DNA of 64,000 nucleotides from Candidatus Woesearchaeota archaeon (GCA_964623495.1 CAZUTV010000001.1:44682-108681); one strand, 5' to 3'. Numbered from the stretch's first letter, positions 27,412 through 55,189 are shown. Translations and numbers: made by a program. Notes: generated by a model not told the origin, from the letters alone.

Positions 27412-27483
27412 GGTTTATTAGACCAGTCATTTTGACCTCCAAAAATTTAATTCAGAAACAAAGCGAGGCTTTGAGCATGCAAG

Positions 27484-37261: not shown

Positions 37262-37405
37262 CCTCTTCCTTAATTTAACCATGGTTGAATATCGAATCAC
37301 TCAGAGGCATCGAAAAGATTCGACCTCGGTTGCTGGATCGAGAATTTACACGAATAATTCAAAAGGAGTGTGGGTTCGAGCAATAAAAACCCGCCGGAGG
37401 TTTTT
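37262..37405 (+). promoter_or_regulatory. GC-enriched structured leader / candidate cis-regulatory or small RNA element
   Basis: About 45% GC versus about 33% context; hairpins TCGAATC(16 nt loop)GATTCGA and CTCG..CGAG; terminal stem AAAAACC-CGCCGGA-GGTTTTT occludes the GGAGG SD 6 nt before the ATG at 37406. Confidence 0.3.
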
Positions 37406-38818
37406 ATGGTTGAAATAAAGAGTGTGGCAGACATAATAAAAGAAATCTCCCCATACTATAAGGAAAAGGGCGGACCAGAAGCAGAACATAAGCTTGTTTA
37501 TGACTCAAGCTCTGAAACTCTCGAGCCAGTTTACTTTTATATCATTGACTTAATGAATGATCTAGGGTTTAAAATTGAAAAACTAGTTGATAACTTTTCT
37601 TCTTCTGTGGGTTCTGGCCATTTTTCAGAACTTGGCCAAAGAGCAACAATTATGCAGCAGCAAGGAGCAAAAATTCTTGGTGATGTCAATACGGTTCTAA
37701 GATCTGTATTAAATATTGTATACGATTTAAAGGAATTCAGAATAAGACTTCAAACCTACGACGACTTGAAATCAAAAGATAAAAAGAAATCAGAAGGTGC
37801 AAAATACTCGCTAAAACAAATCTGGATGGATAAGGTTGATATTAACAAGGGAAATTCAAGCATAAAGGCAATGGCTCTCGGGCAGGCAGGATTTCAAACT
37901 CTAATAGACGCATTTCTAATTGTTAATGACGAAAAACTTAAGGGGCCTGATGGAAAAGAACTTGATCTGAATGACAGAGTTAAAAGAATAGTCCAGCAGA
38001 GAATTTCAGAATACAATATCTGGATTAAACAATCAGAGATGGAATTAAGAAAAAGATTTGAATTAGAGAAAACCTACCTTAAAAGCCAGGTCAATGCCCT
38101 AAAACTTTACACAAGATGGGCCAAACCCTACTTAAAAGCCGCTTCTCAGCTAGAAACAAAAGACTTTGGGAGAGATCCTGCACTAGTCAAGGTTTTCAAC
38201 ACCCTTCTCCTTGAACTAACACTTCTTGGAGCCAGGGAAATAAAAGTCAAAGAATCTGCCCTTGAAGGGGATCTTCCAAGAGAATTCACTAGAGAAGGAT
38301 TCATAAAGTCCTTGAAGAGAAAATACCATGTGTGTGTTTTGGTTGATTTTGTTTTTAGGGGGATTCCGCAAAGAGCAGGCCAGCAATTCCATTATGTTTT
38401 TGGAGGAAAAGTGGATGTTATTTTTAGAGGTTATGTTTTAAACGATGATGAGATAAATAAGATTAAGGAAGTTTTGGACAAATCAGACCTCTCAACAGCC
38501 CTATCTTTAGTTGAAGGGACCACAGAAGAAAGTCTTTCCCAAATTGAAGAAGAAATAAACTTTTATTTGGAAGAAAGAGATGAAAGTAAAGAAGAGAAGA
38601 GCGATGAGTCAAATCCTTTTCTGGCATTGTTTGGATTCTATAATAAGTCAGATTCAAAGTCTTCTGGAAAGAAAGAAAAGAAAGAGATAATCGTAGCCAA
38701 AGACAGCTGGGTTGAAAAAGCCCATCTCAGAAGGCTTGGGTCTGAAAAAGCAGTAGAAGACGCTTTTAAGGTCTTTGAAACCTACAAAAAGTCCCATGAT
38801 ATGCCTGCGTACACTTAA
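37406..38818 (+). CDS. hypothetical 470-aa largely alpha-helical protein
   Basis: ORF; track start 37370 is GTG inside the structured leader; no recognisable motifs. Confidence 0.5.
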   Translation: MVEIKSVADIIKEISPYYKEKGGPEAEHKLVYDSSSETLEPVYFYIIDLMNDLGFKIEKLVDNFSSSVGSGHFSELGQRATIMQQQGAKILGDVNTVLRSVLNIVYDLKEFRIRLQTYDDLKSKDKKKSEGAKYSLKQIWMDKVDINKGNSSIKAMALGQAGFQTLIDAFLIVNDEKLKGPDGKELDLNDRVKRIVQQRISEYNIWIKQSEMELRKRFELEKTYLKSQVNALKLYTRWAKPYLKAASQLETKDFGRDPALVKVFNTLLLELTLLGAREIKVKESALEGDLPREFTREGFIKSLKRKYHVCVLVDFVFRGIPQRAGQQFHYVFGGKVDVIFRGYVLNDDEINKIKEVLDKSDLSTALSLVEGTTEESLSQIEEEINFYLEERDESKEEKSDESNPFLALFGFYNKSDSKSSGKKEKKEIIVAKDSWVEKAHLRRLGSEKAVEDAFKVFETYKKSHDMPAYT

Positions 38819-38846: not shown

Positions 38847-39263
38847 ATGATTTCTATGGCAACAGAAGCATTAGTGGTTAAACTTTCAGCTCCGTTTAGC
38901 AGACACAGGGGAAACTGCCAGTGTCCAAATTTAATGCCCCTCTGGGAGCAAATGGCTGAAACAGACAGAGCAGAAGCAGAGGCCAGAAGATATGCAGAGC
39001 AGTTTGCAGAGAACCCAGAGAAATACAAAAGAGATGTTATTTTTCAAGATGCGCTTATAAGGAGAAGGAGAAGTTTTGAATTGGCGCTTGAACTATACAG
39101 GGATGTTTTTGCACAAGCCGCAAGATCAAAAGGAATAATTTTTGAATCTGGTGGAAGAGTTGTTGAACCAGACATCATCCAAGAAGGCCAGCAATATACT
39201 ATGAACTGCAGCACTTGCAGAACAGAAATTCCTTTTGTGGAATACGAAGGCTGGAACCAGTAA
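38847..39263 (+). CDS. hypothetical protein with CxC...CxxC
   Basis: ORF; GNCQCP and NCSTCRTE. Confidence 0.4.
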   Translation: MISMATEALVVKLSAPFSRHRGNCQCPNLMPLWEQMAETDRAEAEARRYAEQFAENPEKYKRDVIFQDALIRRRRSFELALELYRDVFAQAARSKGIIFESGGRVVEPDIIQEGQQYTMNCSTCRTEIPFVEYEGWNQ

Positions 39264-39293: not shown

Positions 39294-39734
39294 ATGTCTA
39301 TGTACAAAAAAAGAGACATTGATGAGAGGTTAAGAAATCTTGGTGCAACTCCCTTATACAAGGAAGGATGGGATTATGCAGTTACCTATAAGGGCGTGAG
39401 AATTCCAGGGATTAAGGTGACTCATCCGGGCAATGAAATTCCTGACGGTGCTGTAAGCAAGCTTGCAAGAGAAATTGCAGACATAGGAAATCTAAATTCA
39501 AATGATGTTAAAAAGGTCTTGAGGGGGATGCGCCCTTCACTTGACACCGGATTAAATTCGGGGATTTTAACCGCTTCATTTGTCTTGATAATGCTTATAA
39601 TTTCAAGAACAAAAATTCTTACGGGCAATGTAATCGGAAATATTCCTTCTTCTGCCTTAAATGGTTTAATAATCTTAGTTGTCTTTATTATTCTTGGATT
39701 GCTCTTATTAAAATTCAGAAGAGATAACTCTTAA
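39294..39734 (+). CDS. hypothetical protein with two C-terminal TM helices
   Basis: ORF plus hydrophobicity. Confidence 0.4.
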   Translation: MSMYKKRDIDERLRNLGATPLYKEGWDYAVTYKGVRIPGIKVTHPGNEIPDGAVSKLAREIADIGNLNSNDVKKVLRGMRPSLDTGLNSGILTASFVLIMLIISRTKILTGNVIGNIPSSALNGLIILVVFIILGLLLLKFRRDNS

Positions 39735-39768: not shown

Positions 39769-40365
39769 ATGGAAAAAACCAGCAAGCCAGCCAAAAAATC
39801 AAGCAAAATTCAAAAAACTCTTGGAAAAGTCAAGTTCAAGGAAATAATCATTCCTCTTGAGAAATCTGAAAAAAAGGAATTAGAACCTCCCAGGAAGGAT
39901 TCTGGCTTGGAGGAAGAAATTATTGAAGCAGAGGAAATAATAGATTCCCGGCAATTTCAGAAATTTTTAACAGCGTCCGGCTCCCCAACCTTAGAAAGTA
40001 TAGGAGGATCCCAGCAGCAAAGAGTAAGATTTGTTAGAAGCGAAAGGTCCGAAAGAGATCTAGATAACGATTCCTTAAAATACGATCAGGGCGGAAAAGA
40101 TTATTTTTCTCCAAATCAGGCAGATCCTGGATCTGGAAAAAGAGATTACTCTATGATAAGCGAAGCTCAGCCTTTAAGAGGAAATGATAATACTAGCAGA
40201 TTTTTGCTAAAGCCTGAAGCGCCAATGTCAGATAGGATAGAAAATCAGGCGCCATATCCTGAGATGGGAAGGCCAATAATGAATCCGGAATTTGCGCAAA
40301 ATAGAACAAAGCTCCCTTTTGAAATGGCCAAGGAAGATAAAAAATATAAAGAAGCTAGATTTTAG
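39769..40365 (+). CDS. hypothetical low-complexity / disordered protein
   Basis: ORF; Lys-rich N-terminus; Pro/Glu/Arg-rich C-terminus. Confidence 0.4.
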   Translation: MEKTSKPAKKSSKIQKTLGKVKFKEIIIPLEKSEKKELEPPRKDSGLEEEIIEAEEIIDSRQFQKFLTASGSPTLESIGGSQQQRVRFVRSERSERDLDNDSLKYDQGGKDYFSPNQADPGSGKRDYSMISEAQPLRGNDNTSRFLLKPEAPMSDRIENQAPYPEMGRPIMNPEFAQNRTKLPFEMAKEDKKYKEARF

Positions 40366-40399
40366 ATAGGTTAATAAATAAAAAATCCGTATTTTGTTT

Positions 40400-42160
40400 A
40401 TGGGAAAAGGGGAATACACAATTAAAAATTTTTATTCTGGAGGATACTCTAGTTTTAGCCCTAGTTATGGAAGTTCTTTTACAGGATATAGGACATCAGC
40501 ACAACATTTGGGTATGGCCACTGATGCAAGAACGGCAAATGTTTTAAAAGAAGTTTCTGAAAATTTATCTGCTGGAGCTAAAACCGTTGAATTAAACCAA
40601 GTTTTTCCGGAAGTTTTTGAATCAATCCCAAAAGATCAATTAAAAGAAGTAAATAGGCTTGCAAAACTAACCGGAGTAGATGTCACACTTCATGCGCCTT
40701 TAGTTGAACCTTCTGGTATGACAAAAGACGGGTTTACAGAAGCAGGAAGAGAATCTGCTGAAAGACAAATGAATCTTGCAATAGAAAGGGGGCACGAAAT
40801 AAATCCTAAAGGAAATGTTAATATAACCTTCCACTCTTCGGTTCTTCTCCCAGGACAGATAAAACCAAAAGGAAGAGAAGTTCCAGAAACATTTGTTATA
40901 AATTCGGAATCGGGCTCGGTACAAAAACTGCCCTTGAAAGAAAGAAAGTTTCCTGGAGAAGCACAGCAGCCAAACATCAAAGAAGAGGTGACTAAGATCA
41001 ATGAAGAGGTTTGGAAGCAGCAACTGACCCATCTGGCCTACAATATAGAAAGAGCAAGTGAACTTATAAGGTCTTCGGGATATCTGGCCCTAACAGCCGA
41101 AGCCGAAGAAAAAGCCGGAGAAAAATTATATCCCCAGGAAAAACAGGCAAAAAACGCCTTTAATGTTGGAACAGCTTTTCTGCAAGATTCTTATAGAGAG
41201 CTTAAAGCCCTTTACGATTTAGCATATAAAAACGCAACCGAAGAAGAAAAAAATATGCTGTTGGATTTAGGAAATAAAATTAAGGAAAGGGTGGAAGTAA
41301 TAAAAAAAGAGCCGGATAGCCGTAAAAGCATAATGTTAAGACAGGAAATTGTTGAAGATGGTCTTGCCACCCTAACCAAGATCTCCATTCCAGAGATATA
41401 CAAATCCCTAAATGATTTTGCCAAAGAAAAAACAACAGAAACATTTGCAAACGCAGCCCTTAATTCATATAAAAAATTCAAAGAAAGCACCCCCATAATA
41501 AGTATTGAAAATCCCCCTGCAGGAGGAGCATTCAGCACAGCAGAGGAATTAAAAGAAATTATAGAAAAATCTAGAGAAAAGTTTGTCAAAAAAGCTGTCG
41601 AGTCAGGAATTTCTGAATCAACTGCAAAAGAGCAGGCTGAAAAAATAATCGGAGCTACATGGGATGTCGGCCACATAAACATGCTTAGGAAATACGGCTA
41701 TGAAGGTAAAGACATTGTAAAAGAATCCGAGAAGATAGCACCCTTCTTAAAACACGTCCATCTTTCTGACAACTTTGGCTTAGAGCACACAGAATTGCCT
41801 ATGGGAATGGGAAATGTACCAATAAAAGAAATAATGGAGAAATTTGACGAAGAGGGCTTCAAAGGAAAAAAAATAATCGAAGCGATGCACTGGTGGCAGC
41901 ATTTTTCTCCTGGCGGAAAAACAAATCCTCCGTTGCAGGTAACTTTAGAGGCTTTTGGGTCTCCAATTTATTCTTCTGAATCCGGGCCTTACTGGAATCA
42001 ATCCCCTGGTCTAATACAAAATTATTATAGTGGTTATGGCCAGTTTCTTCCTGATGTTAACTACCAAACCTTTGGTGCAGGATTCTCACAGCTGCCTGCA
42101 GAACTCGGAGGACAAAGGCCAGGCCAAGGTAGTAGAATGAGCGGAAGAGGAATGGAATAA
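40400..42160 (+). CDS. xylose-isomerase-like TIM-barrel (sugar-phosphate isomerase/AP-endonuclease-2 family) split by a long coiled-coil insert, with Gly/Tyr/Ser-rich termini
   Basis: N-half TVELNQVF...VDVTLHAP; C-half KHVHLSDNFGLEHTELPMGMGNVPIKEI...GKKIIEAMH is the family metal-site motif; about 250-aa helical insert between halves; track start 40394 is TTG. Confidence 0.5.
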   Translation: MGKGEYTIKNFYSGGYSSFSPSYGSSFTGYRTSAQHLGMATDARTANVLKEVSENLSAGAKTVELNQVFPEVFESIPKDQLKEVNRLAKLTGVDVTLHAPLVEPSGMTKDGFTEAGRESAERQMNLAIERGHEINPKGNVNITFHSSVLLPGQIKPKGREVPETFVINSESGSVQKLPLKERKFPGEAQQPNIKEEVTKINEEVWKQQLTHLAYNIERASELIRSSGYLALTAEAEEKAGEKLYPQEKQAKNAFNVGTAFLQDSYRELKALYDLAYKNATEEEKNMLLDLGNKIKERVEVIKKEPDSRKSIMLRQEIVEDGLATLTKISIPEIYKSLNDFAKEKTTETFANAALNSYKKFKESTPIISIENPPAGGAFSTAEELKEIIEKSREKFVKKAVESGISESTAKEQAEKIIGATWDVGHINMLRKYGYEGKDIVKESEKIAPFLKHVHLSDNFGLEHTELPMGMGNVPIKEIMEKFDEEGFKGKKIIEAMHWWQHFSPGGKTNPPLQVTLEAFGSPIYSSESGPYWNQSPGLIQNYYSGYGQFLPDVNYQTFGAGFSQLPAELGGQRPGQGSRMSGRGME

Positions 42161-42206: not shown

Positions 42207-43196
42207 ATGGTTAAGAAAAAAAGAGGGAAAAAATCAAAGACGATACGAAAGCTTCCTAATTTAGATGATTTAAGCAAGAAAACAGAAAAGGAAAAGACAG
42301 TTGAAAGCCAAGAAAAAAAACCCATTTCTTCAAAAACCTTCAAAAAACCAAAGATTCATCTAAAACAGGAAAAGCCTAAGAAAAATTTAAATCCAAAAAA
42401 CTTTCCAAGTCTGCAGCTTAAGTCAGAGCATGATATTGCAATGGATTTTGCAGTTAAGGTCTATAAGAGATTTGACAAAATTATCAAGTCTGTTGTTCTT
42501 TTTGGCTCGACAGTAAAGCAGTCTGCTGTTGCAGGTTCAGACATTGACATTATAATAATCATAGATGATGTTGCAATAAAATGGGATCAGGAGCTTATTG
42601 CCTGGTACAGGGAAGAGCTCGAGAAAATTTTGCAAGTCAACCCTTATAAGTATGCATTGCACATAAACACAGTCAAGTTAAGCACCTGGTGGGAAGATGT
42701 AAGCAGAGGGGATCCTGTAGTTATAAATGTCTTAAGGCATGGTGAACCGATGCTGGATTATGCAGGATTCTTTGAGCCTTTAAAATATCTTTTGCTACAG
42801 GGAAAAATCCGACCTTCACCGGAAACAATTTACATATCTCTTCAAAGAGCCCCAACCCATTTAGCAAGAAGCAAAGCATCTGTATTGAGTGCAGTAGAAG
42901 GATTGTATTGGGCAATGGTTGATTCAGCTCATGCCGCCTTGATTGCAGCAAATATCCTTCCTCCTTCTCCAGAGCATCTTGCAATTGATTTAAGGGAGCA
43001 GTTTGTAAATGAAGGAAAATTAAACATGAAATATGTTGTCTGGTACAGAGACTTGCTAATGCTCCACAAAAAAATCAATCACGGAGAAATAAGGGACGTT
43101 AAAGGCTCTGATATTGACGCCTGGTATGACAGAACAAAAGAATTCATTGACGTCATGGCAAATTTAGTTAAAAATATTGTTGATAAGCAAGATTAA
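42207..43196 (+). CDS. Pol-beta-superfamily nucleotidyltransferase with C-terminal helical domain and Lys-rich N-terminal extension
   Basis: VLFGSTVKQSAVAGSDIDIIIIIDD (GS...DxD); paralogous to 47163-48968 (shared RPSPE region). Confidence 0.6.
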   Translation: MVKKKRGKKSKTIRKLPNLDDLSKKTEKEKTVESQEKKPISSKTFKKPKIHLKQEKPKKNLNPKNFPSLQLKSEHDIAMDFAVKVYKRFDKIIKSVVLFGSTVKQSAVAGSDIDIIIIIDDVAIKWDQELIAWYREELEKILQVNPYKYALHINTVKLSTWWEDVSRGDPVVINVLRHGEPMLDYAGFFEPLKYLLLQGKIRPSPETIYISLQRAPTHLARSKASVLSAVEGLYWAMVDSAHAALIAANILPPSPEHLAIDLREQFVNEGKLNMKYVVWYRDLLMLHKKINHGEIRDVKGSDIDAWYDRTKEFIDVMANLVKNIVDKQD

Positions 43197-43212
43197 CTAG
43201 AAAAATTTCTTC

Positions 43213-43497
43213 TTATGCCCCGGGGTTGGGCCCATCAGCAGAATAAACTCTACTTGGGAGATCAAAATTTGGTTTTCTTTGGGGGATAAAGACGTATTTT
43301 TCTGGGAGTATTCTTTGATAATTTAATCCATCGTCTCTGTTAACCGAAGTCTGTGTTGGGGTTCTCCAATCTCTTGATATAATCTCCCTATCATAATTAT
43401 TTTGTAAATCACTCACTCCACTCACAACAGAAAGCATAATTAATCCAGACACAAGGTTTTTTCTCATCTTAAAATCCATTTCCTTTTCTGTAATCAA
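43213..43497 (-). CDS. small secreted protein
   Basis: Signal-like N-terminus (internal start MRKNLVSGLIMLSV). Confidence 0.35.
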   Translation of the reverse strand: MITEKEMDFKMRKNLVSGLIMLSVVSGVSDLQNNYDREIISRDWRTPTQTSVNRDDGLNYQRILPEKYVFIPQRKPNFDLPSRVYSADGPNPGA

Positions 43498-43717
43498 ATT
43501 CTCTGATTATATTGAAATTATGTAGGAAAACAAGCCAGACAAAAGCCCATAGAAACAAGTCAAATCTAAGGTTGAAATCCATTCCAATTATTCCATTAAT
43601 TAAGATATAGACTATAAAGAAAAGAGCAACTGCTAATCCAAAATAGTTTACCCATATTGGTCTTTCTCTCATGATTAAATTTTGTTTTGTCATTTTAATT
43701 TCTCCTCGTTGCAGCAT
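43469..43717 (-). CDS. small 2-TM membrane protein
   Basis: ORF plus hydrophobicity. Confidence 0.35.
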   Translation of the reverse strand: MLQRGEIKMTKQNLIMRERPIWVNYFGLAVALFFIVYILINGIIGMDFNLRFDLFLWAFVWLVFLHNFNIIREFDYRKGNGF

Positions 43718-43883
43718 ACAAAGCAGCTAATCCAACAGCAGCAATCCCCCCGTAAACAACTTCTGGCTGTTTGAGGTTATATCTATCATTCCTTCCTTCG
43801 CTTAAGCCATTTGCTAGTGAAAGAACTGCCACTGAAGCAGCAGCTATTGCTCCTATTCTAAAAATGTTTGCTATTGTTTTCAT
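43695..43883 (-). CDS. small 2-TM membrane protein
   Basis: ORF plus hydrophobicity. Confidence 0.35.
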   Translation of the reverse strand: MKTIANIFRIGAIAAASVAVLSLANGLSEGRNDRYNLKQPEVVYGGIAAVGLAALYAATRRN

Positions 43884-43940
43884 TTTTTGTTTTTAGTTTA
43901 TTTAATCTAAATTATAAAAGTTAAAAAATAAAAAATAAAA

Positions 43941-44519
43941 TTAAAGTTTAGATGCTAAGTTCTTAAGCTCTTGCATTCTTGTGGTATCAACTGCATCAGG
44001 TCTTAAAGATTCATAGCTGTATCTGTCAAGTGTCTGCATTACATCCATAACATCCTTGTATCTGGCTATGGTTTCCTTAGCTTCAGCAATTTGGTCATTG
44101 CTGAACAAGCCCTTTGGAGCTTTCTTGTCAGTCATGTACTTTGCTTTGGCATATTTCTCTCTTATAGACTTGATAGTTTCATCATGTCTATTCAATGCGC
44201 CAACAATCTTGTCTCTGTCTCCAGATTCAAGACCTCCTAAAGCAGAGCCATACCAATCAACTAACTCAGAAGGTTTATATTCTCCTCTCTTCTCTTCGAA
44301 TTTAGATGCATAAACTGCTATTGCAGTAGTTACACCATCTTCAGAAGCCTGAGTACCCCTGATAAAACCTTCAGCATCTTCTCCTAAGTTAAGGCCTTTT
44401 GCACCTGCAAGTACTTCTAAAGCACCCGGAGCATATCTTCCGCCATCTTCAGTTGAAGCTAAATAAGCGGCAGCTGCACCATACTGGTATCTTTTAAAGT
44501 CTGTTCTTTGGTCAGGCAT
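43941..44519 (-). CDS. hypothetical soluble protein
   Basis: ORF with a strong promoter-like motif upstream and T-rich terminator downstream. Confidence 0.45.
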   Translation of the reverse strand: MPDQRTDFKRYQYGAAAAYLASTEDGGRYAPGALEVLAGAKGLNLGEDAEGFIRGTQASEDGVTTAIAVYASKFEEKRGEYKPSELVDWYGSALGGLESGDRDKIVGALNRHDETIKSIREKYAKAKYMTDKKAPKGLFSNDQIAEAKETIARYKDVMDVMQTLDRYSYESLRPDAVDTTRMQELKNLASKL

Positions 44520-44579
44520 TTTGTGTTTTTGTTTTTTCCTCCATTATTATGAGTATTTTTCTTAAAATTACCATAAAAC

Positions 44580-44598
44580 ACTAGTATTTAAACCTTTC
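44580..44598 (-). promoter_or_regulatory. BRE/TATA element (GAAAGGTTTAAATACTAGT on minus strand)
   Basis: About 60-80 nt upstream of the start at 44519. Confidence 0.4.
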
Positions 44599-44736
44599 TA
44601 TTTGTAACCACTTACTAATAGGAACAAAACAGAATACTTAAAAAGAGTAATTTTTCTGGTTAATTTTTAAGTCTTTATCAATATTTAAGAAACCATTACT
44701 AATCAGTTTAAAAATTTTTAGAAACCCGTATAATCT

Positions 44737-45282
44737 CTATTGCTTGCCAGAATTATCTTCAAAAACAACCTTTGTATGACACGGAAGCTTTGATCTTATC
44801 TGATTGTATAAATGCCTTACAATACTTACTGCCTTAGGGGTTTGAACAGCAATAAAAAATATTGGACTGCCTCTCTTTACTATAGCTGCTTTTCCAACAG
44901 CTTTTCCAAAAGAAAGCTGCATTCCGGTCTGCATTCTGTCGGCCCCTGCCCCGGTCAACATTTTATTCTCTCTTTGAATATGGTGCGGAAAAGGAATTAC
45001 TCTGAAATAATACTGCCCAGCAAGCTCTTCATCTAGTTTTTTGTTGATAAACTGTCTGCAAGATTCAAGGGCATTGTGCCTCACCTGTGCGTTTTCTGTA
45101 GCAACCATGGATAGTGATAAAGGTAAATTTCCTTTGCCATACAAACCAGAATTTCCCATACTAAACTTCACAATTTTCTGCGGCGGAACCACTTTTATAA
45201 AAGCCTTGCTTTTCTGTTTGCTTATTCTTGTAAAAGGAACAACAGTCTTCTTCGAATATGATAGGGCTTTTCTAAGTGCCAT
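44737..45282 (-). CDS. rpl10e: 50S ribosomal protein L10e (uL16)
   Basis: MALRKA N-terminus, FSMGN, RHNALESCRQ and RENKMLTGAGADRMQTGM L10e signatures. Confidence 0.85.
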   Translation of the reverse strand: MALRKALSYSKKTVVPFTRISKQKSKAFIKVVPPQKIVKFSMGNSGLYGKGNLPLSLSMVATENAQVRHNALESCRQFINKKLDEELAGQYYFRVIPFPHHIQRENKMLTGAGADRMQTGMQLSFGKAVGKAAIVKRGSPIFFIAVQTPKAVSIVRHLYNQIRSKLPCHTKVVFEDNSGKQ

Positions 45283-45558
45283 TTAACACTCTCCCACCAT
45301 TACAGCTGTTCGAATAGCTTGTTTAAACGCCCCTAATGGTGCTACCTGGATATAAGCAATATTTTCCCCTACAGAACCCTCAACAAAAGATGCCAATTCT
45401 CTTCCCTTGACTTCTGCAAATCTTGAAAGAGATGCAATTTGGTGTCTAATAAAAACATCGTATAATCTATCAGAATCTAAAAATTCAGATGCTCTGCTTA
45501 GCATAAAATTTCCCCATTGGCAAATCGAATTATAAGCAAATATCTTTCTATCTATCAT
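45283..45558 (-). CDS. hypothetical protein in ribosomal-protein operon
   Basis: ORF between rpl35ae and rpl10e. Confidence 0.35.
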   Translation of the reverse strand: MIDRKIFAYNSICQWGNFMLSRASEFLDSDRLYDVFIRHQIASLSRFAEVKGRELASFVEGSVGENIAYIQVAPLGAFKQAIRTAVMVGEC

Positions 45559-45869
45559 TTTATCTCCACCTTTGCGTTATGTGCTTTAGCAGATAATGCA
45601 TGCGAGAAATCTTTAATTTCGACGCTTGTTGTCAAAGCCTGGCCAGGCAGTCCTTTTTCAAATATAGCCCTAACAACGCCTTTAGTTCCGTGAGGAGCAG
45701 CTATCTTTCCGTTGATTGCTCTGCCTGCAGAAGATTTCCATTGCACACTCTTGCCTACAAACTTCTCAGCATCCTTTCTTGTTTTAGAACCTTCTATCTC
45801 TATAAGAAAGTGCCTTTCATGAACAGTATGTCTTCCTCTTCTAAATTGAATTACTTTTGCATTTACCAT
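45555..45869 (-). CDS. rpl35ae: 50S ribosomal protein L35Ae
   Basis: IQFRRGRHTVHERHFLIEIEG and HGTKGVVRAIFEKGLP L35Ae signatures. Confidence 0.8.
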   Translation of the reverse strand: MVNAKVIQFRRGRHTVHERHFLIEIEGSKTRKDAEKFVGKSVQWKSSAGRAINGKIAAPHGTKGVVRAIFEKGLPGQALTTSVEIKDFSHALSAKAHNAKVEIK

Positions 45870-45900
45870 TTTATATCGTGCAAAAAATCATTTATAAATC

Positions 45901-46998
45901 TTATCTATTCTCTAAAACAATGATTTCTCGTCCGACAATATTAGATTCCCTATATTCTTTAATTGGAAATCCCTTGACAATTTTAAGCCCGGTATTCTTA
46001 GCTATTTTCTCAAGGTTGCATGAAACCCTGGTTTTTCCGGTTTTTATCAAAGGAAGAGTAAACACAATTCTCCCAGAAACACTTTTCTTAAGATTGTTTA
46101 AAACAGAAACCATTAACCCTTCAAATCCCCTTAACATTTTATTGGCTTCTTCTAAAGAAGGAACATGCCTAAGAACTCTCCCCAAATCAGGTTCTGTAAC
46201 CACACCATCGACTTTGCCTATATCTACTTTCCTAGAGTCACCAGTAATAATAGAATACCTCTCTGAATTAAACCTCTTAAATTTCAAATTTTCCAGACAC
46301 CCTTTGATTGCTTCTTCATCTTTGTCAATTCCTACCACTCTAATCTCCTGCATCAAAGCCTCTATTAGTATCGCTCCTATGCCGCAAAAAGGATCTAATA
46401 AAATCTCTTTTTCTTTGACTAAAGACAGGTTTATCATTATCTTTGCTAGCCTAGGGGAGATAGAAAGCTCTTCTCTTCTTACCGGCTTTTCCATATCTCT
46501 TTCTTCCAGCTCCTTGTAATCACAATTTTGAATAATTCTTCCAAAAAGATCCTCAAAAACAAAAAACTCTTCATTAATTAATCCAGAAGCGATTCTTACC
46601 CTCTCTCCTGACTGCAATTCCATTGAGCCATTAAGGTTTTTTTCTGTTGCCTTTAACTCTTCTTGCTTGAATCTTTTTTTAAGATAGCCTGAAACTTTAT
46701 CATAATTCTTATCTGAGAAATTCCAAAGAACATAATTAAGCTTATTACTGGCCCCGTTGTAAATAACAGCTTTATCTAGCTCAACATCTCTGGTACCACA
46801 TAAACCCTCCCCTATTGCAATAACACCGCCAAGCCTATCGATTGCATTATTCTTTAATTTATTATCAATTTCCACTAAAAAACCATTACTCTTCAAATTA
46901 AAGCCCAGTATTTTATGCCCCTCCTTTTTCAGATAGCAAAAAACTTCCTGCTTTGAAAGCTCGGGATTTCTTCCTAGAATGAACAAGTATTGTGGCAT
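45901..46998 (-). CDS. THUMP-domain tRNA (guanine-N2)-methyltransferase (Trm11/Trm14 family)
   Basis: LDPFCGIGAILIEA SAM-binding motif of the UPF0020 MTase family after an N-terminal THUMP-like region. Confidence 0.7.
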   Translation of the reverse strand: MPQYLFILGRNPELSKQEVFCYLKKEGHKILGFNLKSNGFLVEIDNKLKNNAIDRLGGVIAIGEGLCGTRDVELDKAVIYNGASNKLNYVLWNFSDKNYDKVSGYLKKRFKQEELKATEKNLNGSMELQSGERVRIASGLINEEFFVFEDLFGRIIQNCDYKELEERDMEKPVRREELSISPRLAKIMINLSLVKEKEILLDPFCGIGAILIEALMQEIRVVGIDKDEEAIKGCLENLKFKRFNSERYSIITGDSRKVDIGKVDGVVTEPDLGRVLRHVPSLEEANKMLRGFEGLMVSVLNNLKKSVSGRIVFTLPLIKTGKTRVSCNLEKIAKNTGLKIVKGFPIKEYRESNIVGREIIVLENR

Positions 46999-47162
46999 TT
47001 TGATAATATGATAAGGATAGTATATTCTATTTTAAAAATTATGGGATTAGTATATCCATAGATTAAAGGCATTACAATGAAGATAATTATTGATATTCCT
47101 CAAACTTAGTAGTTAAGTCTATCAAATTAGTATTAACAAATTATCAAAAAATCATTAAACCC

Positions 47163-48968
47163 TTACAAAACAATTTCAAATTCTCCAAACTCTTTTTTTA
47201 TAAGGTCAAATAGTTTAGGATTAACTGCAAGATCTTTCCTTGTCTTTTGGTGCTCCATGGCCTCAGAAACTTCTTTCATATTTGAGGTTTCTATCTTGTC
47301 TGTTATTTTTTTAATTTCATTACCAATAAACAAAAAGCAGTTTCCTCCGGAAATCAAGAGTTCGGCAGTCCTGTCCTTAAAGATTATCTTCATCCTTCCC
47401 TTTTCAACACCCAATAGATCCTTTCTCTGAGAGAAATCAATAAGATCGTTCATAAGGATTGCAGATCCTTTTCTTACATCATCTGCTTTCTGCAGGCTTA
47501 GCTTCGCTTTCTTTGACTCTGTCTTGGCAGCAACTATCTCTTTAAGAATTCTTAGGTGTTGCTGCGTAAACTTGCCTTTCTTAACAAGCTTATTTTCAAA
47601 CTCATGCACAATATCCTGCTGTGAATTCTTTCCAGTAACTATCTTCAAAAGCTCAAAAACATCCTTATACACTTGATCTATGGTTTTTTCCTGCGCCTGC
47701 TTTTCAATCTGATCTCTTAACTCCTTAAGTCTTTTAAGATAATCCTCTGTATCTTTAAGCAGCTTATCAATTTCTTTTCCAGAAACTTCCTTTATCTTCT
47801 CGTGTTCATATCCCTTATAATACTTAATTGTAATCTCTTCAAGAATGTCAATGTATTTTTTTTCAAGCATCTTTTCCTTGTCAACAAAAACCCTCTTCAT
47901 TTCCTTAAAAGTTTCTTTTGTTGTTGGGGGAGGCATCCCATACAGCATTAACAAAGCCTGGCTTGGGGTTATAACACTCCAGTAAATATCCAATAACAGA
48001 ATATCCATTAAAGCCTTCTTAGCTCTCTTAATTGTGTTGTCTCCTGCAGACATGAACATGTCAATAGCTTCTGGAGAAGGTTTAAGCTTCCCCATTTTTA
48101 ATAATGCTTTCCATGGCATAAAGGTAGCTCGATCATAAAGAGGAACTCCGTCTCTTATAAATGTAAAAATAACCGGATGGGCATCCTTGACACTCTCCCA
48201 AAAGTCAGTCAAAAGATAAACTTGGATGTTAAGCATGTTGTTTTTGACTCCTGCAAGAGCAGCAGCCTCTGTCACATACTGGCCGACAATCATGCTCCTA
48301 AGCCTTTCCTTTAATTCAAGTCTTGGCATTCTCTTAACATCAGTATCATTAATGACAACAAAAACATCAACATCAGAGCTTTTTACAGTATCTCCTCTTA
48401 CAAAGCTTCCTGCAATAACGTAGCTTACAACATACTTGTCAAATTTCCTTAAAACAAGGGATTTGTGTATTTCAGCAACTCTTAAGCCTTGAAGTATTCC
48501 GGTATCATGAATTGGAAGAGACATTGCAATGGCGCCGATAAGCTCGAATTTGCTGTCAAAACAGATCTCCCATAAATCCACAGGAGTCTTAATCTGAAGC
48601 CAGATCTTTTGCTTAAGCTTTTCCTGCGTCAATTCAACTTGTTTAATGATTTCCTGCTTTATCTTTGGAATATTCTTAAATTGTTCTTCAGGAACCACCA
48701 TATACAAATGCAGGTATTTTTCAGTTTCCTTAGGAACTTCTTCCTCCTCAATAAAAAACTTAATTGCCTGGTTGTGAAGAATGCTTATGGATTGTGTGAA
48801 AGGATATTTTTTAACAATAAATCCTTTCAACTTATCCAGCTCTTTTCTTGTTTTCTCCATCTCTTTCTGCAGTTTTTCCTGATCGGGAGGCAATATATTT
48901 TTAGAACTATATTTATTATCCAGATTCATTTCAGGAATGTCTTGAGGAGAGTTATCATTCGAGGACAT
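47163..48968 (-). CDS. Pol-beta-superfamily nucleotidyltransferase with N- and C-terminal coiled-coil extensions (paralogue of 42207-43196)
   Basis: VIAGSFVRGDTVKSSDVDVFVVINDTD; shared downstream region PWKALLKMGKLKPSPEAI. Confidence 0.6.
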   Translation of the reverse strand: MSSNDNSPQDIPEMNLDNKYSSKNILPPDQEKLQKEMEKTRKELDKLKGFIVKKYPFTQSISILHNQAIKFFIEEEEVPKETEKYLHLYMVVPEEQFKNIPKIKQEIIKQVELTQEKLKQKIWLQIKTPVDLWEICFDSKFELIGAIAMSLPIHDTGILQGLRVAEIHKSLVLRKFDKYVVSYVIAGSFVRGDTVKSSDVDVFVVINDTDVKRMPRLELKERLRSMIVGQYVTEAAALAGVKNNMLNIQVYLLTDFWESVKDAHPVIFTFIRDGVPLYDRATFMPWKALLKMGKLKPSPEAIDMFMSAGDNTIKRAKKALMDILLLDIYWSVITPSQALLMLYGMPPPTTKETFKEMKRVFVDKEKMLEKKYIDILEEITIKYYKGYEHEKIKEVSGKEIDKLLKDTEDYLKRLKELRDQIEKQAQEKTIDQVYKDVFELLKIVTGKNSQQDIVHEFENKLVKKGKFTQQHLRILKEIVAAKTESKKAKLSLQKADDVRKGSAILMNDLIDFSQRKDLLGVEKGRMKIIFKDRTAELLISGGNCFLFIGNEIKKITDKIETSNMKEVSEAMEHQKTRKDLAVNPKLFDLIKKEFGEFEIVL

Positions 48969-49919: not shown

Positions 49920-49990
49920 ACTCCGTAAATGGCCCTAAGCAGGATCGAACTGCTGACTACTCGGTGTAAACGAGTCGTTTTGCCACTAGA
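49920..49990 (-). tRNA. tRNA-Val (UAC)
   Basis: Perfect acceptor GGCCCTA/TAGGGCC, anticodon loop TTTACAC, T-arm AGCAG-TTCGATC-CTGCT. Confidence 0.85.
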
Positions 49991-50169
49991 CTATAGGGCC
50001 TGAAAACCTGCGGTTTTCGATCCATGAAGCAACTTCCTTTCTTTGCCTCTGATGGAAGTTTTGATCCCGAAAACCTACAGATGTAAAACATAAAAACACC
50101 TTTTAAAACTTACTAAAACAAGTAAACTGAAAAATCAGAAAAAAATAGAAAAAAGAAAAATAAAAAAGC

Positions 50170-50629: not shown

Positions 50630-51115
50630 TTAAGGAACTCTTCCTGAAATTGTTCCGCTTGCCTGCTGTGTTATCCCTCCAGCTCCTGCAGTGAAGTAAA
50701 CAGTAACATCGCCGTTAAACCTGGTGTCTGAAGTTAAAGCGGTTCCGTCGCATGCAACTGTCAAAGCTCCGGTTAAAGTTCCGTCAGCAACAGGACCAAC
50801 ATCTGCAAAGGTATCGGTTGCAGAATTAGTGCATCCTTCAATCTCTATATTTGAGATTGTTACTGCATCGCCAACACCATTCCTAAATTCTATCTGGATA
50901 TTTCCGGGTACTGGAGCAGCAGATATAGCCATACCTTCTGGATCAAATGGCTGGCTTAGAGTAAATCTATTTCCAGCAAGGTTTCCAGGACTTCCTATAA
51001 TATACCATAAAACTCCTACAACAATGATTGCAGCTAAAATTGCCCAACCATAAGTCATAAGAAACTCCATGGCCGCCTGTCCTCTTTTTCTTATCATAAT
51101 CATACCTCCTTTCAT
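50630..51115 (-). CDS. archaeal type IV pilin-like protein (class III signal peptide)
   Basis: IRKRGQAAMEFLMTYGWAILAAIIVVGVL; Gly/Thr-rich beta domain. Confidence 0.6.
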   Translation of the reverse strand: MKGGMIMIRKRGQAAMEFLMTYGWAILAAIIVVGVLWYIIGSPGNLAGNRFTLSQPFDPEGMAISAAPVPGNIQIEFRNGVGDAVTISNIEIEGCTNSATDTFADVGPVADGTLTGALTVACDGTALTSDTRFNGDVTVYFTAGAGGITQQASGTISGRVP

Positions 51116-51159
51116 CAGGTCAAATAAATCTTAACCTCTTATAATTTTATTATGGAAAA

Positions 51160-51177
51160 TTAGTATTTAAACATTTC
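51160..51177 (-). promoter_or_regulatory. BRE/TATA element (GAAATGTTTAAATACTAA on minus strand)
   Basis: About 50 nt upstream of pilin start 51115. Confidence 0.4.
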
Positions 51178-51187
51178 TCCCCATTTA

Positions 51188-52180
51188 CTAAGGAGTTAAT
51201 ATTCTACTAACCTGATATTTAATGTGATGCCTTACTGGTTCTGTGTCATCAATCCTAAACCACGATTGCATTCCAAAAACTCCCGAATGATGTATGTCTA
51301 TTTCTGTAAAATAAATATAATCTATGCAGGATTTTGTCATTACCGGAACGTCCTGTATTCTGAGCTCATCAATATTGACAAAACTCTCAATGCCGTTAGG
51401 ATCCGAAGAAAGATCTCCTTCAAGCCTTTTCAGAAAGCTCGGGGCATAAGTATTCTCCGCATAATATCCTTTATTAACGTGATCTTTTAGATTTGTAACA
51501 TCTCCTAACTCAGTCACATAATTTTCCTCATAAAAAGTTTTAGTTATCTTCCTCGATACTCTCCCTCCAGTATTCACAACAAACAAAGGATCTTCGAACT
51601 CAGTTATTGGAATATATGCAGAGATTACTTGCCTTTTGTCCCACCTAGCAAGACCTTCTTTATCTTCCATCACAAAATCAGAAATAAGGGAGAACTTAAC
51701 ATGCCACGGATCATCCTGGCTTACATTTATTATAGAATTGCTTATGTTAACCCGGACATTAATTTTCGCAGCATTTCTGTTTATAGAATCAAGAACATCT
51801 GCATAAGTCACTCCCTGAATGAGGCTTATATTTGCTTCTCCTTTAACTGTACCATTAAAAAATGCTTCGCTGAAAAAAGTATCTACATCAATATAATCCC
51901 CGGAAACCGCAATCTCGTTCTCTGCTACAAGAAGAATCCTAAACCCAGAAATATAAACTTGTCTTTCTAGATTCTTTTCCATTGAAAAAAGAAAATTATC
52001 CATTGTAGAAACTCTGGTAGTTATAGAATTTTTTTCCTTTACTAGGGAAAATATTTCAAAAGAAGCAAACATAAGCAAAATGAGTAGTATAGCAATTCCC
52101 GTAAAAAATTGGGATTTTTTATTTTGAATTAAATTGAATTTCATCATTTCCATGTCCTCACCTGAACTTCTGTCTCCCAC
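51188..52180 (-). CDS. pilus-locus membrane-anchored hypothetical protein
   Basis: N-terminal TM then extracytoplasmic domain; start may be the internal MKFNL. Confidence 0.45.
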   Translation of the reverse strand: MGDRSSGEDMEMMKFNLIQNKKSQFFTGIAILLILLMFASFEIFSLVKEKNSITTRVSTMDNFLFSMEKNLERQVYISGFRILLVAENEIAVSGDYIDVDTFFSEAFFNGTVKGEANISLIQGVTYADVLDSINRNAAKINVRVNISNSIINVSQDDPWHVKFSLISDFVMEDKEGLARWDKRQVISAYIPITEFEDPLFVVNTGGRVSRKITKTFYEENYVTELGDVTNLKDHVNKGYYAENTYAPSFLKRLEGDLSSDPNGIESFVNIDELRIQDVPVMTKSCIDYIYFTEIDIHHSGVFGMQSWFRIDDTEPVRHHIKYQVSRILTP

Positions 52181-54741
52181 GCAAACGGAATTCCAGAAAC
52201 CTCGACAGAATTTATTGAAAGATCGTTCTCCGAGAACTTAGTTTCAATCTTGCCATTTAAATTAAGATCCATTTCCTGCAAAAGCTTAAAGACAGCATTG
52301 TTAATAGCATCATTTTCATCATAAGACTGTAATGACGAAGTATAAGAGCAACTGCCTGAACCAGAATAATTTGATGGAACTTTAAAAGTAGAGGTGGTCC
52401 CATCTTCAAATTCCACTTCCCATTCACATCCGTTAGCAAATGGAAGTATGGCAGTGTAAGAAGAAATTTCTTTTAAAACCGAGTAAATAACTTTGTTGTA
52501 AGGTGATCCTGCGCTAGCGTTAAAGGGATTCAGACCAACACCCACCCTTACAGAATTATTTCCCACATTAATAAGCGATGGAGGGATATTAACCATATAC
52601 GGATCTCCAAGTTTAGTAAAATTAACCCCATACTCTCCAAGATCAAAAATATTATCCCAGGTTCCGGTCACATTATTATATTTCTCAACCTTGCTCGTCC
52701 ACTTTGATCCAGAATAAGAAACAACCTTTGCGTCATAAGGGGCTGTATCATTTGGAACAAAGAAACTTCCTTGTGAAAGATTATTGTTAAATTCAGGGGT
52801 TTCTGAAACAACAACCAACCCGTATGGAATGCTTTCTTTATAGCTTATATTAATATATGAATCTGGATAAAGCCGCGTATTTATTCCTTCCCCGACAATT
52901 GTTTGTTCTACATAGGCTGCCTGAATAACATCGCTGGCAACCTGCCTATAAATGCTTTCTAGCTGGCTTACATTCACGAAATAATAGTTTCCGTGCCCGC
53001 AATTAGCGATATCTTCCATAACCTGCCGATTAATATTGCTCCCAAATCCAATTGCATAAACTTTTATAGAATAATTATTATATGCTGCACAGGCCGCATT
53101 AACTGCCCATTGTTGATCAAGAGCATCACTTATTCCCCCAGACCAATCACCTCTAGACCCTGAGCCGCTATAATCTGTATAACTATTACAATAATAGGTA
53201 GGTGCTCCATCACTCATAACAACTATCGACCTTGATTTGCTTGAATTTGACTGCGTTGCAAGCATATTTACGGCCCTATTAATACCGCAGCAAATACAGG
53301 TTCCTCCTGTTGCACTCCAAGAATCGACTTCTGCTTTAAGGCTGACATTATTAGTAGAAAGGGCATGCGTGTTTGAAAGAAGGGCGCTTGTGCTGTATGC
53401 TGCAAGACCAACCCTATTAATTGAAGAATTAAGAACAATATCCACAAATAACTTTGTTGCGTTCTTTGATTCCCCGATCTTATCTTCATAAATTCCGCCG
53501 CACTCTCCGCATCTTGTTGCATTATTAACACACCAACCACAACTAGAATTACAGCAAGAACTTCTCCCACAAGTAACCCCGCTGCATGTCGATGCCATGC
53601 TTCCGCTTATATCGTTAGTGGAAATAACATCTGCGGGCAGAGTAACATTAAAAGTATAAGAAGCATTTACAAACCCAACCCTAAAAGGAATGGTTTTGTC
53701 TTCAAGAGTCGAATAATCCAACAAGGAGGATAAATAGGCGTTATCAAGGCTAATATTTACAATTTGCCCGCTGCTATTCCCCTGATAAACAGTTTTATTT
53801 CCTATCATAAAAAATATGTCGTAAGAGCTGTTATAACGAAGTAGAGATTCTATTCTTGTTATTGTAGAGGGAATATAAAAACTATCGTATAAATTTATAA
53901 GCCCATCAATGCCTGGAAAATTTTTTCTCCCGTTAAGATAAGGAACGTTGGAATAAATTATCTTAATAAATCCTCCAGCAACGTAAAGTGTGCCATTGAA
54001 AGATTTAAATTCGAAATAATTGTCTCCACTAACAAAGTTCGAGGAATAAGGAGATAAATCTATTTTATACGGAACATTTGGATTAGGATTAAAAACCCCA
54101 ACATTCACATTATTTATAGATAGATTAAATGGTCTAGAAAAAACTCCTTCGATGTTTCCATCAATAATCTCCCCAGTAATTTTTACAGTTATATTTCCAT
54201 CACCGACATAACCACCAAAATAAAAATAATCTACTTTATTTGCAGAAGACAAAAATGCTCTTGCAGAATAGCCTTTTGTTGCGTTCCCCTGTTGAATCCC
54301 GCTGATTATCTGCCTGGAGGTATAAATTGTATCTGCATCATTATACGGACTTACTTCGGACTTTGCAATCTCGGTGTTTCCAAAATACAATCCGAGGTTT
54401 TTGCTTAGATTCAAGCCATCAAGTATAGAATCGGCAAGCATATTTGCTGCAGCATCGTTATTGGCGTAAAATTCTCCGAGTTGATCAAGAACAGACTGAT
54501 TAAGGTTAGTGATATTTCCAGAAGCAATTAACTGTTTTGCATATGAATTGTCTATTTCTCCGATTTTAATTGAAGAAAGAGAGATTATAAGGTCTTCTTG
54601 CAGATGTGTCTCGTACTGAACTTGAGAATGCTGTGGTTTTATAAAAAGAACGACCCCAAGAATCAGCAGCAGAGCTATCAAAGCATCCACGCTGAAATAG
54701 TAGGCTTTTTTATTTTTTTTAAAATTTAGCATTTTAGTCAT
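52144..54741 (-). CDS. large pilin-like adhesin with von Willebrand factor A domain
   Basis: Class-III-like N-terminus KKAYYFSVDALIALLLILGVVL; MIDAS DISGSM and IVVMSDGAPT; many Cys; about 865 aa. Confidence 0.65.
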   Translation of the reverse strand: MTKMLNFKKNKKAYYFSVDALIALLLILGVVLFIKPQHSQVQYETHLQEDLIISLSSIKIGEIDNSYAKQLIASGNITNLNQSVLDQLGEFYANNDAAANMLADSILDGLNLSKNLGLYFGNTEIAKSEVSPYNDADTIYTSRQIISGIQQGNATKGYSARAFLSSANKVDYFYFGGYVGDGNITVKITGEIIDGNIEGVFSRPFNLSINNVNVGVFNPNPNVPYKIDLSPYSSNFVSGDNYFEFKSFNGTLYVAGGFIKIIYSNVPYLNGRKNFPGIDGLINLYDSFYIPSTITRIESLLRYNSSYDIFFMIGNKTVYQGNSSGQIVNISLDNAYLSSLLDYSTLEDKTIPFRVGFVNASYTFNVTLPADVISTNDISGSMASTCSGVTCGRSSCCNSSCGWCVNNATRCGECGGIYEDKIGESKNATKLFVDIVLNSSINRVGLAAYSTSALLSNTHALSTNNVSLKAEVDSWSATGGTCICCGINRAVNMLATQSNSSKSRSIVVMSDGAPTYYCNSYTDYSGSGSRGDWSGGISDALDQQWAVNAACAAYNNYSIKVYAIGFGSNINRQVMEDIANCGHGNYYFVNVSQLESIYRQVASDVIQAAYVEQTIVGEGINTRLYPDSYINISYKESIPYGLVVVSETPEFNNNLSQGSFFVPNDTAPYDAKVVSYSGSKWTSKVEKYNNVTGTWDNIFDLGEYGVNFTKLGDPYMVNIPPSLINVGNNSVRVGVGLNPFNASAGSPYNKVIYSVLKEISSYTAILPFANGCEWEVEFEDGTTSTFKVPSNYSGSGSCSYTSSLQSYDENDAINNAVFKLLQEMDLNLNGKIETKFSENDLSINSVEVSGIPFAWETEVQVRTWK

Positions 54742-55189
54742 AAAGATAAAGATTAAATTTAGAGGGTTTATTTTTGTAAAGAACAATTCTCGTAACCTGA
54801 ACAAGATTTTCTACTTCTCCTGGGCCGGCTAAACCGACATGACTCTCTGGATTTCCTTGAATTGTCAGATTCTGAATGGTGAAATAAAAATGATTTCTAG
54901 ATCCAACAAAATTCTTCAAGCCAGAATAATTAAGGTATACTTCATCCAGCTTTGATTGATTAACCTGATTTTCATTTAGAATTCCGAATTCCCCTTCGCT
55001 TAGTATAAGATCTGCTGCAAGGTTCCCCTCATAAAAGAGCTCATCTAATTTGTTCTTTGATTGGGACGAGTAATTTACTGCATAAACATAGAGTATAACT
55101 ATCCCGGAGATAAATATTACGCTTGCTATAACCAAGTCAAAACTCCAGGTTTGTGCTCTTTTGTTTTTAATTGAGGTAAACGCTTCCAT
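54734..55189 (-). CDS. minor pilin-like protein (class III signal peptide)
   Basis: KRAQTWSFDLVIASVIFISGIVIL. Confidence 0.55.
   Translation of the reverse strand: MEAFTSIKNKRAQTWSFDLVIASVIFISGIVILYVYAVNYSSQSKNKLDELFYEGNLAADLILSEGEFGILNENQVNQSKLDEVYLNYSGLKNFVGSRNHFYFTIQNLTIQGNPESHVGLAGPGEVENLVQVTRIVLYKNKPSKFNLYLYD

Follow-up and report, generated by a model that had tools for sequence, protein, structure and literature searches.

Two paralogous MNT-HEPN fusion proteins of DPANN archaea as putative core nucleotidyltransferases

Analysing a 64,000-nucleotide stretch of DNA from a Candidatus Woesearchaeota archaeon (GCA_964623495.1, CAZUTV010000001.1:44682-108681, hereafter the window), we characterised two of its genes, named here A and B, whose products share a Pol-beta-type nucleotidyltransferase (NTase) core. 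In the reading that we favour, with moderate confidence, A and B are two ancient DPANN paralogs in which an MNT domain is fused to a HEPN fold, and act as core NTases transferring a nucleoside monophosphate (NMP). They are of a known kind, the MNT-HEPN or KNTase-type NTases, and their family is known but uncharacterised; the fused, duplicated and operon-linked housekeeping form described here is a distinct variant of it. The window has a G+C content of about 35% and encodes archaeal ribosomal proteins and an archaeal-type pilin. The two genes, defined by their open reading frames (ORFs) and by Pfam NTP_transf_2 matches, are the following.

42207..43196, plus strand: gene A, 329 residues, short MNT-HEPN fusion of the A-like subfamily
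47163..48968, minus strand: gene B, 601 residues, long MNT-HEPN fusion of the B-like subfamily

An initial annotation, made from the sequence alone, had described ORFs of these lengths, on opposite strands within 42207-48968, and proposed that they were paralogs lying about 5 kb apart. Both ORFs are present as described; the real gap is 4.0 kb (6.8 kb from start to start). Their paralogy is real, since BLASTP aligns A 85-328 with B 172-424 at a level far beyond chance (27% identity and 51% positives over 257 residues, E = 2e-28). The Pfam model NTP_transf_2 (PF01909) scores 33.7 bits on A and 27.1 bits on B, against a gathering cut-off of 21, and is matched by all 82 of the 82 aligned family members. 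The shared GS-X9-13-DxD core recognised in the initial annotation is found as G100-S101-x10-D112-I-D114 in A and G187-S188-x10-D199-V-D201 in B, and the KxRPSPE block that it had also pointed out takes the form GK[IL][RK]PSPE, being GKIRPSPE in A (199-206) and GKLKPSPE in B (293-300).

Both proteins combine an alpha/beta NTase fold with a four-helix up-and-down HEPN (UPF0332-like) fold, and their arrangement, an NTase domain followed by a C-terminal helical domain in one chain, is that of KNTase and the other ANT enzymes, to which the best structural similarity was obtained. Foldseek ranked AAD(9), the MNT antitoxin of an AMPylated-HEPN complex, AadA, HalB and ANT(4') at the top. Furthermore, a profile built from divergent members aligned with the KNTase sequence over its full length (E 2e-5), the invariant P-x-x-D-x-G motif of the family falling on the KNTase 'PIYDSGG'. 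Sequence searches of the PDB with A, B and the family profile matched only the 30-residue GS/DxD core (of MNT, DrrA, CdnD and HalB), at E 0.01 or worse. The initial annotation had suggested a minimal layout shared with KNTase-like modifiers or with CD-NTase/cGAS-like signalling enzymes. The former is borne out by the structural ranking and the profile alignment; for the latter, no CD-NTase, cGAS or OAS appeared in the Foldseek top 50, and neither a SMODS Pfam model nor a CBASS PADLOC model was matched. Taken together, these results identify A and B as KNTase-type MNT-HEPN fusions, not as cGAS-like enzymes. Kanamycin and streptomycin adenylyltransferases and MntA-HepT toxin-antitoxin pairs are built on this chassis too. 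By structure, no confident match to a housekeeping enzyme family was found; the indications of a housekeeping role come from conservation and from the gene context.

KNTase works as a dimer in which a sugar hydroxyl, lodged between the NTase domain and the helical domain, is adenylylated. The identity of the family to KNTase ANT(4') and to AAD(9)/AadA ANT(3'')(9) is only 9-15%, and the position of KNTase E76 is not acidic in the family. In addition, KNTase and the ANT enzymes are plasmid or transposon resistance genes, whereas A and B are core, syntenic DPANN genes, and B has three extra domains; their chromosomal housekeeping context argues against a resistance role. Compared with the MntA-HepT type VII pairs and with stand-alone MNT (COG1708/1669) and HEPN (UPF0332, e.g. 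AF0298) proteins, A and B fuse both folds in one polypeptide. They also differ from MntA-HepT in their degenerate Rx4-6H motif, in a vertical and near-universal inheritance within the lineage and in their housekeeping context. HalB, from the Hailong anti-phage system, is a defence enzyme making oligodeoxyadenylate for a partner channel, while A and B have no HalA-like neighbour.

The nucleotide- and metal-binding site of the NTase domain is kept throughout the family. For 150 proteins, each representing a cluster at 50% identity, we counted how often each residue (in A numbering) is conserved. G100 (115/115), S101 (109/116), D112 (115/117) and D114 (116/119) of the core are nearly invariant, as are D120 (112/119), D121 (116/120), W162 (125/129), D184 (129/129) and E206 (127/131); in the helical domain, K288 is found in 120/134 representatives and H292 in 102/136. 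The domains of A, all on the plus strand, were delimited by composition, predicted local distance difference test (pLDDT) scores, the Pfam match at residues 87-146, conservation counts and alignments.

42207..42416, plus strand: residues 1-70, Lys-rich disordered tail
42417..42800, plus strand: residues 71-198, minimal NTase domain (G100-S101, D112-x-D114, D120-D121, H152/N154 on the strand expected to bear the third carboxylate, W162, D184)
42801..42824, plus strand: residues 199-206, GKIRPSPE linker that leads to the first helix of the HEPN domain
42819..43193, plus strand: residues 205-329, HEPN-fold helical domain, with H287-KKIN-H292 at the Rx4-6H column

Within the linker, G199 (131 of 133 representatives) and E206 (as given above) are near-invariant family-wide. 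The Lys-rich disordered N-terminus attributed to A in the initial annotation stands, residues 1-70 containing 22 Lys and 2 Arg and being modelled with pLDDT below 50. This tail is lineage-specific: it is unalignable and variable in length among orthologs, and distant A-like proteins, about 265 residues long, do not have it. An S25e-like match of the same region (E 0.1) was dismissed as low-complexity Lys-rich similarity.

The architecture of B is more elaborate. Its AlphaFold2 model reaches a mean pLDDT of 83 and, with the profile comparisons, resolves the following domains.

48498..48881, minus strand: residues 30-157, degenerate (pseudo) NTase domain (model secondary structure, hhalign, invariant columns)
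48081..48497, minus strand: residues 158-296, active-looking NTase domain (G187-S188-x10-D199-V-D201, N207-D208, W257, D279; N247/Q249 in place of the third carboxylate)
47631..48080, minus strand: residues 297-446, GKLKPSPE linker and HEPN-fold domain with a very long last helix (397-445); the Rx4-6H column reads Y384-KGYE-H389
47400..47630, minus strand: residues 447-523, second three-helix domain, possibly a partial HEPN repeat (model)
47166..47399, minus strand: residues 524-601, C-terminal alpha/beta domain of five strands and two helices, present in all B orthologs

The N-terminal alpha/beta domain of B is a dead duplicate of the NTase domain: residues 30-157 repeat the secondary-structure order of the active domain and keep W123...P129 and P152-x-x-D155, with neither GS nor DxD, and hhalign places B 86-157 in register with B 200-281 (E 5.5e-4). 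A duplication of the HEPN domain to give the second helical domain is more tentative, the hhalign comparison of B 349-413 with 449-515 being weak (E 0.011, probability 3.7%). The extension of B had been described initially as long coiled coils; long helices do span residues 397-522, and the extension also comprises the alpha/beta domains at 30-157 and 524-601. All these extra regions are kept at 64-77% identity across more than 100 orthologs. Other architectures occur in the family, including tandem fusions of two complete A-like units (P0275, 633 residues; P0384, 611 residues), very long relatives with the MNT-HEPN core at their C-terminal end (P0361, 1136 residues; P0348, 662 residues) and intermediate forms of 370-450 residues among the cluster representatives. 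The tandem fusions and intermediate forms fit a family working as dimers or pseudo-dimers.

The canonical Rx4-6H RNase motif of HEPN domains was found in neither A nor B, both having lost the Arg at the motif column (H-KKIN-H in A, Y-KGYE-H in B). A also contains R281-x5-H287, a column that holds Arg in only 13 of 136 representatives. The form R-x4-H (R-K-x-x-E-H) is kept in 30 of 82 B-like and 8 of 21 intermediate representatives, a pattern indicating that part of the family descends from proteins with the RNase motif, which has decayed in A and B.

The family is large and appears restricted to DPANN archaea and vertically inherited. At 90% clustering, 4057 homologs of A and 3261 of B were retrieved, and clustering at 50% yielded 1230 clusters at E 1e-3 or better. 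The best 120 homologs of A are 66-83% identical to it, all those bearing a name coming from Nanoarchaeota or Pacearchaeota metagenome-assembled genomes (MAGs), and the best 120 homologs of B are 64-100% identical over their full length, B itself being 100% identical to a protein from a Joint Genome Institute (JGI) metagenome contig and from NCBI MAGs. A scan of one genome per species detected an A-like protein in at least 561 genomes. Among the best 80, a contig in a 'Bacillota' MAG is the only one whose label is not Pacearchaeota, Woesearchaeota or Nanoarchaeota. Distant A-like proteins (26-40% identity) are found in Woesearchaeota, in Parvarchaeota including Parvarchaeum acidiphilum ARMAN-4 (EEZ92728.1), and in Rehaiarchaeum.

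The organism labels in the family are Pacearchaeota, Woesearchaeota, Nanoarchaeota, Parvarchaeota or Rehaiarchaeum, with two bacterial exceptions. The Bacillota-labelled contig (L016, DATKUW010000032.1) bears the whole archaeal g482-TIM588-A-L10e-L35Ae-B locus, whose genes are described below, and another protein (P0519) is labelled Candidatus Binatia; both probably derive from mis-binned DPANN contigs.

A and B are conserved at the level of ribosomal proteins. Across the 36 genome pairs that allowed a comparison of every gene concerned, the median identity to the window proteins is 67.5% for A, a figure inflated by the choice of the 80 loci on their similarity to A, and 62.6% for B, which is unaffected by this choice, compared with 64.6% for L10e, 68.4% for L35Ae and 45.6% for TIM588. 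Conservation as tight as that of ribosomal proteins makes A and B look like essential enzymes and not like cGAS-like signalling enzymes. They are vertically inherited core genes, neither mobile nor defence genes.

Their neighbourhoods are conserved as well. In the window, A closes a module of four main genes on the plus strand, and B heads a string of translation-related genes on the minus strand, identified by Pfam and NCBIfam models.

37370..38818, plus strand: g482, conserved gene without known function, first of the g482 - g198 - TIM588 - A module
38847-39263 and 39294-39734: two extra small ORFs between g482 and g198
39769..40365, plus strand: g198, low-complexity second gene of the module
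40394..42160, plus strand: TIM588, 588-residue xylose-isomerase/AP_endonuc_2-type TIM-barrel metalloprotein, separated from A by a 46-nucleotide gap
43941-44519, minus strand: 192-residue ORF downstream of L10e, no family match, detectable in 9 of the 80 related loci
44737-45282, minus strand: ribosomal protein L10e/uL16
45283-45558, minus strand: 91-residue ORF between L35Ae and L10e, no family match
45555-45869, minus strand: ribosomal protein L35Ae, downstream of B
45901-46998, minus strand: Trm11-like (TIGR01177/UPF0020) methyltransferase, downstream of B

TIM588 matches Pfam AP_endonuc_2 (E 1.7e-15), and its profile matches MJ1311 in the PDB (3wqo, E 5e-16). MJ1311 is an uncharacterised dinuclear-metal protein; TIM588 is related to it and keeps the full His/Asp/Glu metal-ligand set as invariant residues (H100 H147 E372 D424 H427 H456 D459 E496). 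It also contains a helical insert of about 200 residues and G/S/Y/F-rich low-complexity tails at both ends. These tails, e.g. 'GGYSSFSPSYGSSFTGY' and 'YYSGYGQFLPDVNYQTFGAGF...GSRMSGRGME', are kept in orthologs and are unusual for a TIM-barrel enzyme; one may speculate that such Tyr/Ser-rich segments are modification targets of the adjacent NTase.

A TIM588 ortholog stands directly upstream of A, on the same strand, in 76 of the 80 loci, and g482 lies upstream in 58. The four-gene order (a gene of ~480-520 residues, one of ~185-200 residues, an AP_endonuc_2 TIM barrel of 590-670 residues and an A-like gene) recurs in three Woesearchaeota loci (L083, L086 and L087). There, equivalents of g482 with 478-519 residues occupy the same position at 23-27% identity, and the genes of 185-201 residues preceding the TIM gene are likened to g198 by position and size only. 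In a Parvarchaeota locus (L085), a 587-residue TIM gene directly upstream overlaps the A-like start by 4 nucleotides, the genes further upstream being shorter (135 and 182 residues), and in two other loci (L082 and L084) the distance from the A-like gene to the TIM gene is no more than 5-8 kb. The module can be followed from Pacearchaeales to Parvarchaeota, where the TIM-A pair is the part that is kept. These module-linked A-like proteins of Woesearchaeota and Parvarchaeota are only 26-40% identical to A. The recurrence of this arrangement designates TIM588 as a conserved, predicted operon partner of A. For the other two genes of the module, g482 returned no Pfam, NCBIfam, PADLOC or PDB match, and a profile from 31 of its orthologs had no PDB relative, so that this gene offers no hint of function; g198 matched no Pfam or NCBIfam family.

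On the side of B, the interval between A and B contains L10e and L35Ae in 53-56 of the 80 loci, sometimes together with the Trm11-like methyltransferase. Of the 45 loci whose downstream flank covers 8 kb or more, 32 have a B ortholog on the opposite strand. The neighbours of distant B-like and intermediate proteins are genes for RNA polymerase subunit L, an RsmD-like methyltransferase, aspartyl-tRNA synthetase (AspRS), S15, eIF5A and Kae1. None of these neighbourhoods resembles a defence island, and we found no effector or sensor gene in the conserved surroundings of A and B.

From these elements a common scheme can be proposed. A and B would each bind a magnesium-complexed nucleoside triphosphate (NTP-Mg) at the GS/DxD site and transfer an NMP, most likely AMP, to a substrate hydroxyl. 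The substrate would be held by the HEPN-like domain, by analogy with KNTase, which acts on aminoglycosides, and with MntA, which according to PDB entry titles AMPylates a Tyr of its HEPN partner (HepT). With its dead NTase copy and second helical domain, B could form a built-in pseudo-dimer, while A may work as a homodimer or together with B. The substrate of A is probably connected with the upstream MJ1311-like TIM-barrel metalloprotein, and could be the substrate of that protein, its product or the protein itself. That of B, which heads the Trm11-like/L35Ae/L10e gene string, is probably connected with the translation apparatus, one of whose components B would modify.

Several observations weigh against this reading, besides the selection effect on the A identity figure noted above. 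The third carboxylate is absent from its canonical strand, which reads L-H152-I-N154-T in A and L-N247-I-Q249-V in B; the third acidic residue that the initial annotation proposed to look for as [E/D]h[E/D]h is thus not at the canonical place in A, in B or in most representatives. At the first position of this strand (A152) the representatives have H (73), N (28), S (18) or E (3), and at the second (A154) Q (79), N (24) or T (14); by subfamily, A-like proteins have L-H-I-N and B-like proteins L-N/S/H-x-Q, where KNTase has V-E76-V. Possible substitutes are D120/D121, D184 and E206. With His, Asn or Gln in place of the third carboxylate, and D184 and E206 invariant, the metal geometry may differ from that of the textbook site. 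E206 and a frequent acidic residue ahead of the Y-W motif are candidates only for the roles of KNTase E145, the catalytic base, and E76, the third metal ligand, the alignment around E145 being unreliable. The chemistry may accordingly differ from that of KNTase, or the activity of B may be weak. In addition, the NTase domain in the model of A is of moderate to low confidence, with residues 162-190 at pLDDT below 50, and, with approximately 37% of B-like and intermediate representatives keeping R-x4-H, it is conceivable that HEPN domains of the family cleave RNA or bind phosphate.

Finally, the family has very probably been noticed before. Makarova, Wolf and Koonin (2019; PMC6393860) described a DPANN-specific cluster, cls.004259 (NEQ050), as an uncharacterised MNT fused to HEPN, typically in a house-keeping context, and considered it 'most probably a toxin-antitoxin module', remarking on its conservation as unusual. 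Every element of this description is found in A and B (an MNT-HEPN fusion, restriction to DPANN, a housekeeping context), and the A/B family very probably corresponds to cls.004259, matched by description and not by alignment. That description (PMC6393860) is without the short and long paralogs, the internal duplication, the missing third carboxylate and the TIM-barrel operon, and in the literature we found no paper giving the family a function or reporting two paralogs, a pseudo-NTase duplication or a TIM-barrel operon.

Among the alternatives, A and B could be RNA 3'-end nucleotidyltransferases with a DPANN-specific CCA-adding, tRNA-repair or tailing activity, one or the other extending the 3' ends of tRNA or rRNA, with the Lys-rich tail of A and the C-terminal alpha/beta domain of B binding RNA. 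The translation genes and tRNA methyltransferase of the context, the K-rich tail itself and a weak similarity to the Pfam MTPAP-like palm (66 of 82 members, below cut-off) are in keeping with such a role. Moreover, all four of the four tRNA genes called by ARAGORN in the window are without an encoded CCA, so that a CCA-adding activity is required in the organism. We nevertheless regard this explanation as unlikely. Class I CCA-adding enzymes and poly(A) polymerases have a head-neck-body-tail architecture and three catalytic carboxylates, but A and B have no neck, body or tail domains and no third carboxylate of the polymerase-type two-metal chemistry, and the K-rich tail is restricted to a lineage and missing in distant A-like proteins. 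A CCA-adding enzyme or poly(A) polymerase was rejected as lead hypothesis on the fold ranking and the missing third carboxylate.

The published view of cls.004259 (PMC6393860) favours another explanation, that of a domesticated or active fused type VII toxin-antitoxin or defence module, in which the HEPN RNase would be checked by self-AMPylation by the MNT domain. It is compatible with the structural resemblance to HepT/MntA complexes, among them entries for AMPylated HEPN toxins, with the R-x4-H of 38 of the 103 B-like and intermediate representatives, and with weak matches to the NCBIfam models MntA (24 bits against a cut-off of 60) and HalB (13-17 against 190) and to PADLOC PDC-S09, M05A and M70A, the only PADLOC models matched. 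These NCBIfam and PADLOC matches were, however, discarded as indications of a toxin-antitoxin or defence function, covering only 40-60 residues of the NTase core and falling far below curated cut-offs. Furthermore, A and B are single fused chains and not two adjacent genes, their motifs have lost the Arg and have no H-x-Y acceptor Tyr after the His, and their near-universal, syntenic conservation is the opposite of a patchy mobile distribution. This explanation is improbable for A and B.

We give a similarly low probability to the possibility that A and B are non-catalytic structural or scaffolding proteins, for instance associated with the ribosome or another complex, that keep only the NTase fold. 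The missing canonical third carboxylate, the clearly dead NTase domain already present in B, and the conservation of B over its entire 601 residues, helical and C-terminal domains included, which suggests many interaction surfaces, would all fit. On the other hand, G-S, D-x-D, D-D, D184 and E206 are kept in 94-100% of ~115-130 divergent representatives, which would be difficult to account for if the proteins neither bound a ligand nor acted as catalysts. Finally, CD-NTase/cGAS-like enzymes making cyclic or linear oligonucleotide messengers are very improbable, the shared Pol-beta GS...DxD core and a contact of the family profile with CdnD over only ~30 residues (E 0.057) standing against the structural ranking and model searches given above, a C-terminal domain that is HEPN and not the PAP/OAS-type helical domain of the cGAS/OAS-type fold, the absent third carboxylate and a conserved neighbourhood without effector, sensor or Cap gene.

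Beyond the A-B locus, the window contains the following features, the tRNA genes being called by ARAGORN without an encoded 3' CCA.

16815-16885, 24007-24077, 27483-27554 and 49930-50000: tRNA genes (Trp, Ala, His, Val)
50630-54804, minus strand: cluster of an archaeal class-III-signal pilin-like protein (50630-51115), a 330-residue protein without assigned function and an 865-886-residue VWA-domain protein

The latter cluster may encode a type IV pilus or an adhesion system of the DPANN cell. A fifth tRNA match (Rfam, 48.8 bits) at 62265-62391 on the minus strand spans 127 nucleotides for a 71-position model and has no ARAGORN call; an archaeal tRNA gene interrupted by an intron is the probable explanation.

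Conserved genes specific to the lineage are very scarce in DPANN archaea, and among them a fused MNT-HEPN protein was highlighted in 2019 as a top priority awaiting a function. The locus examined here shows that the family comprises an ancient pair of paralogs, one short and one long and putatively pseudo-dimeric, the short one being locked in an operon with a large TIM-barrel metalloprotein across lineages only about 30% identical. It thereby offers handles, in the form of co-expression partners and residues to mutate, on a probably essential activity of mostly uncultured organisms, and would also illustrate how a scaffold of toxin-antitoxin or resistance enzymes came to serve a core function of the cell. 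A further, doubtful possibility is that the MNT-HEPN chassis was recruited in DPANN as an essential and lineage-defining nucleotidylylation, carried out by A with its obligate TIM partner and two other proteins and by the pseudo-dimeric B, as a housekeeping modification found nowhere else. If true, AMP could for example be attached to a component of translation or cell maintenance, or to a metabolite derived from the host, and the modification could relate to the reduced, symbiotic lifestyle of these archaea.

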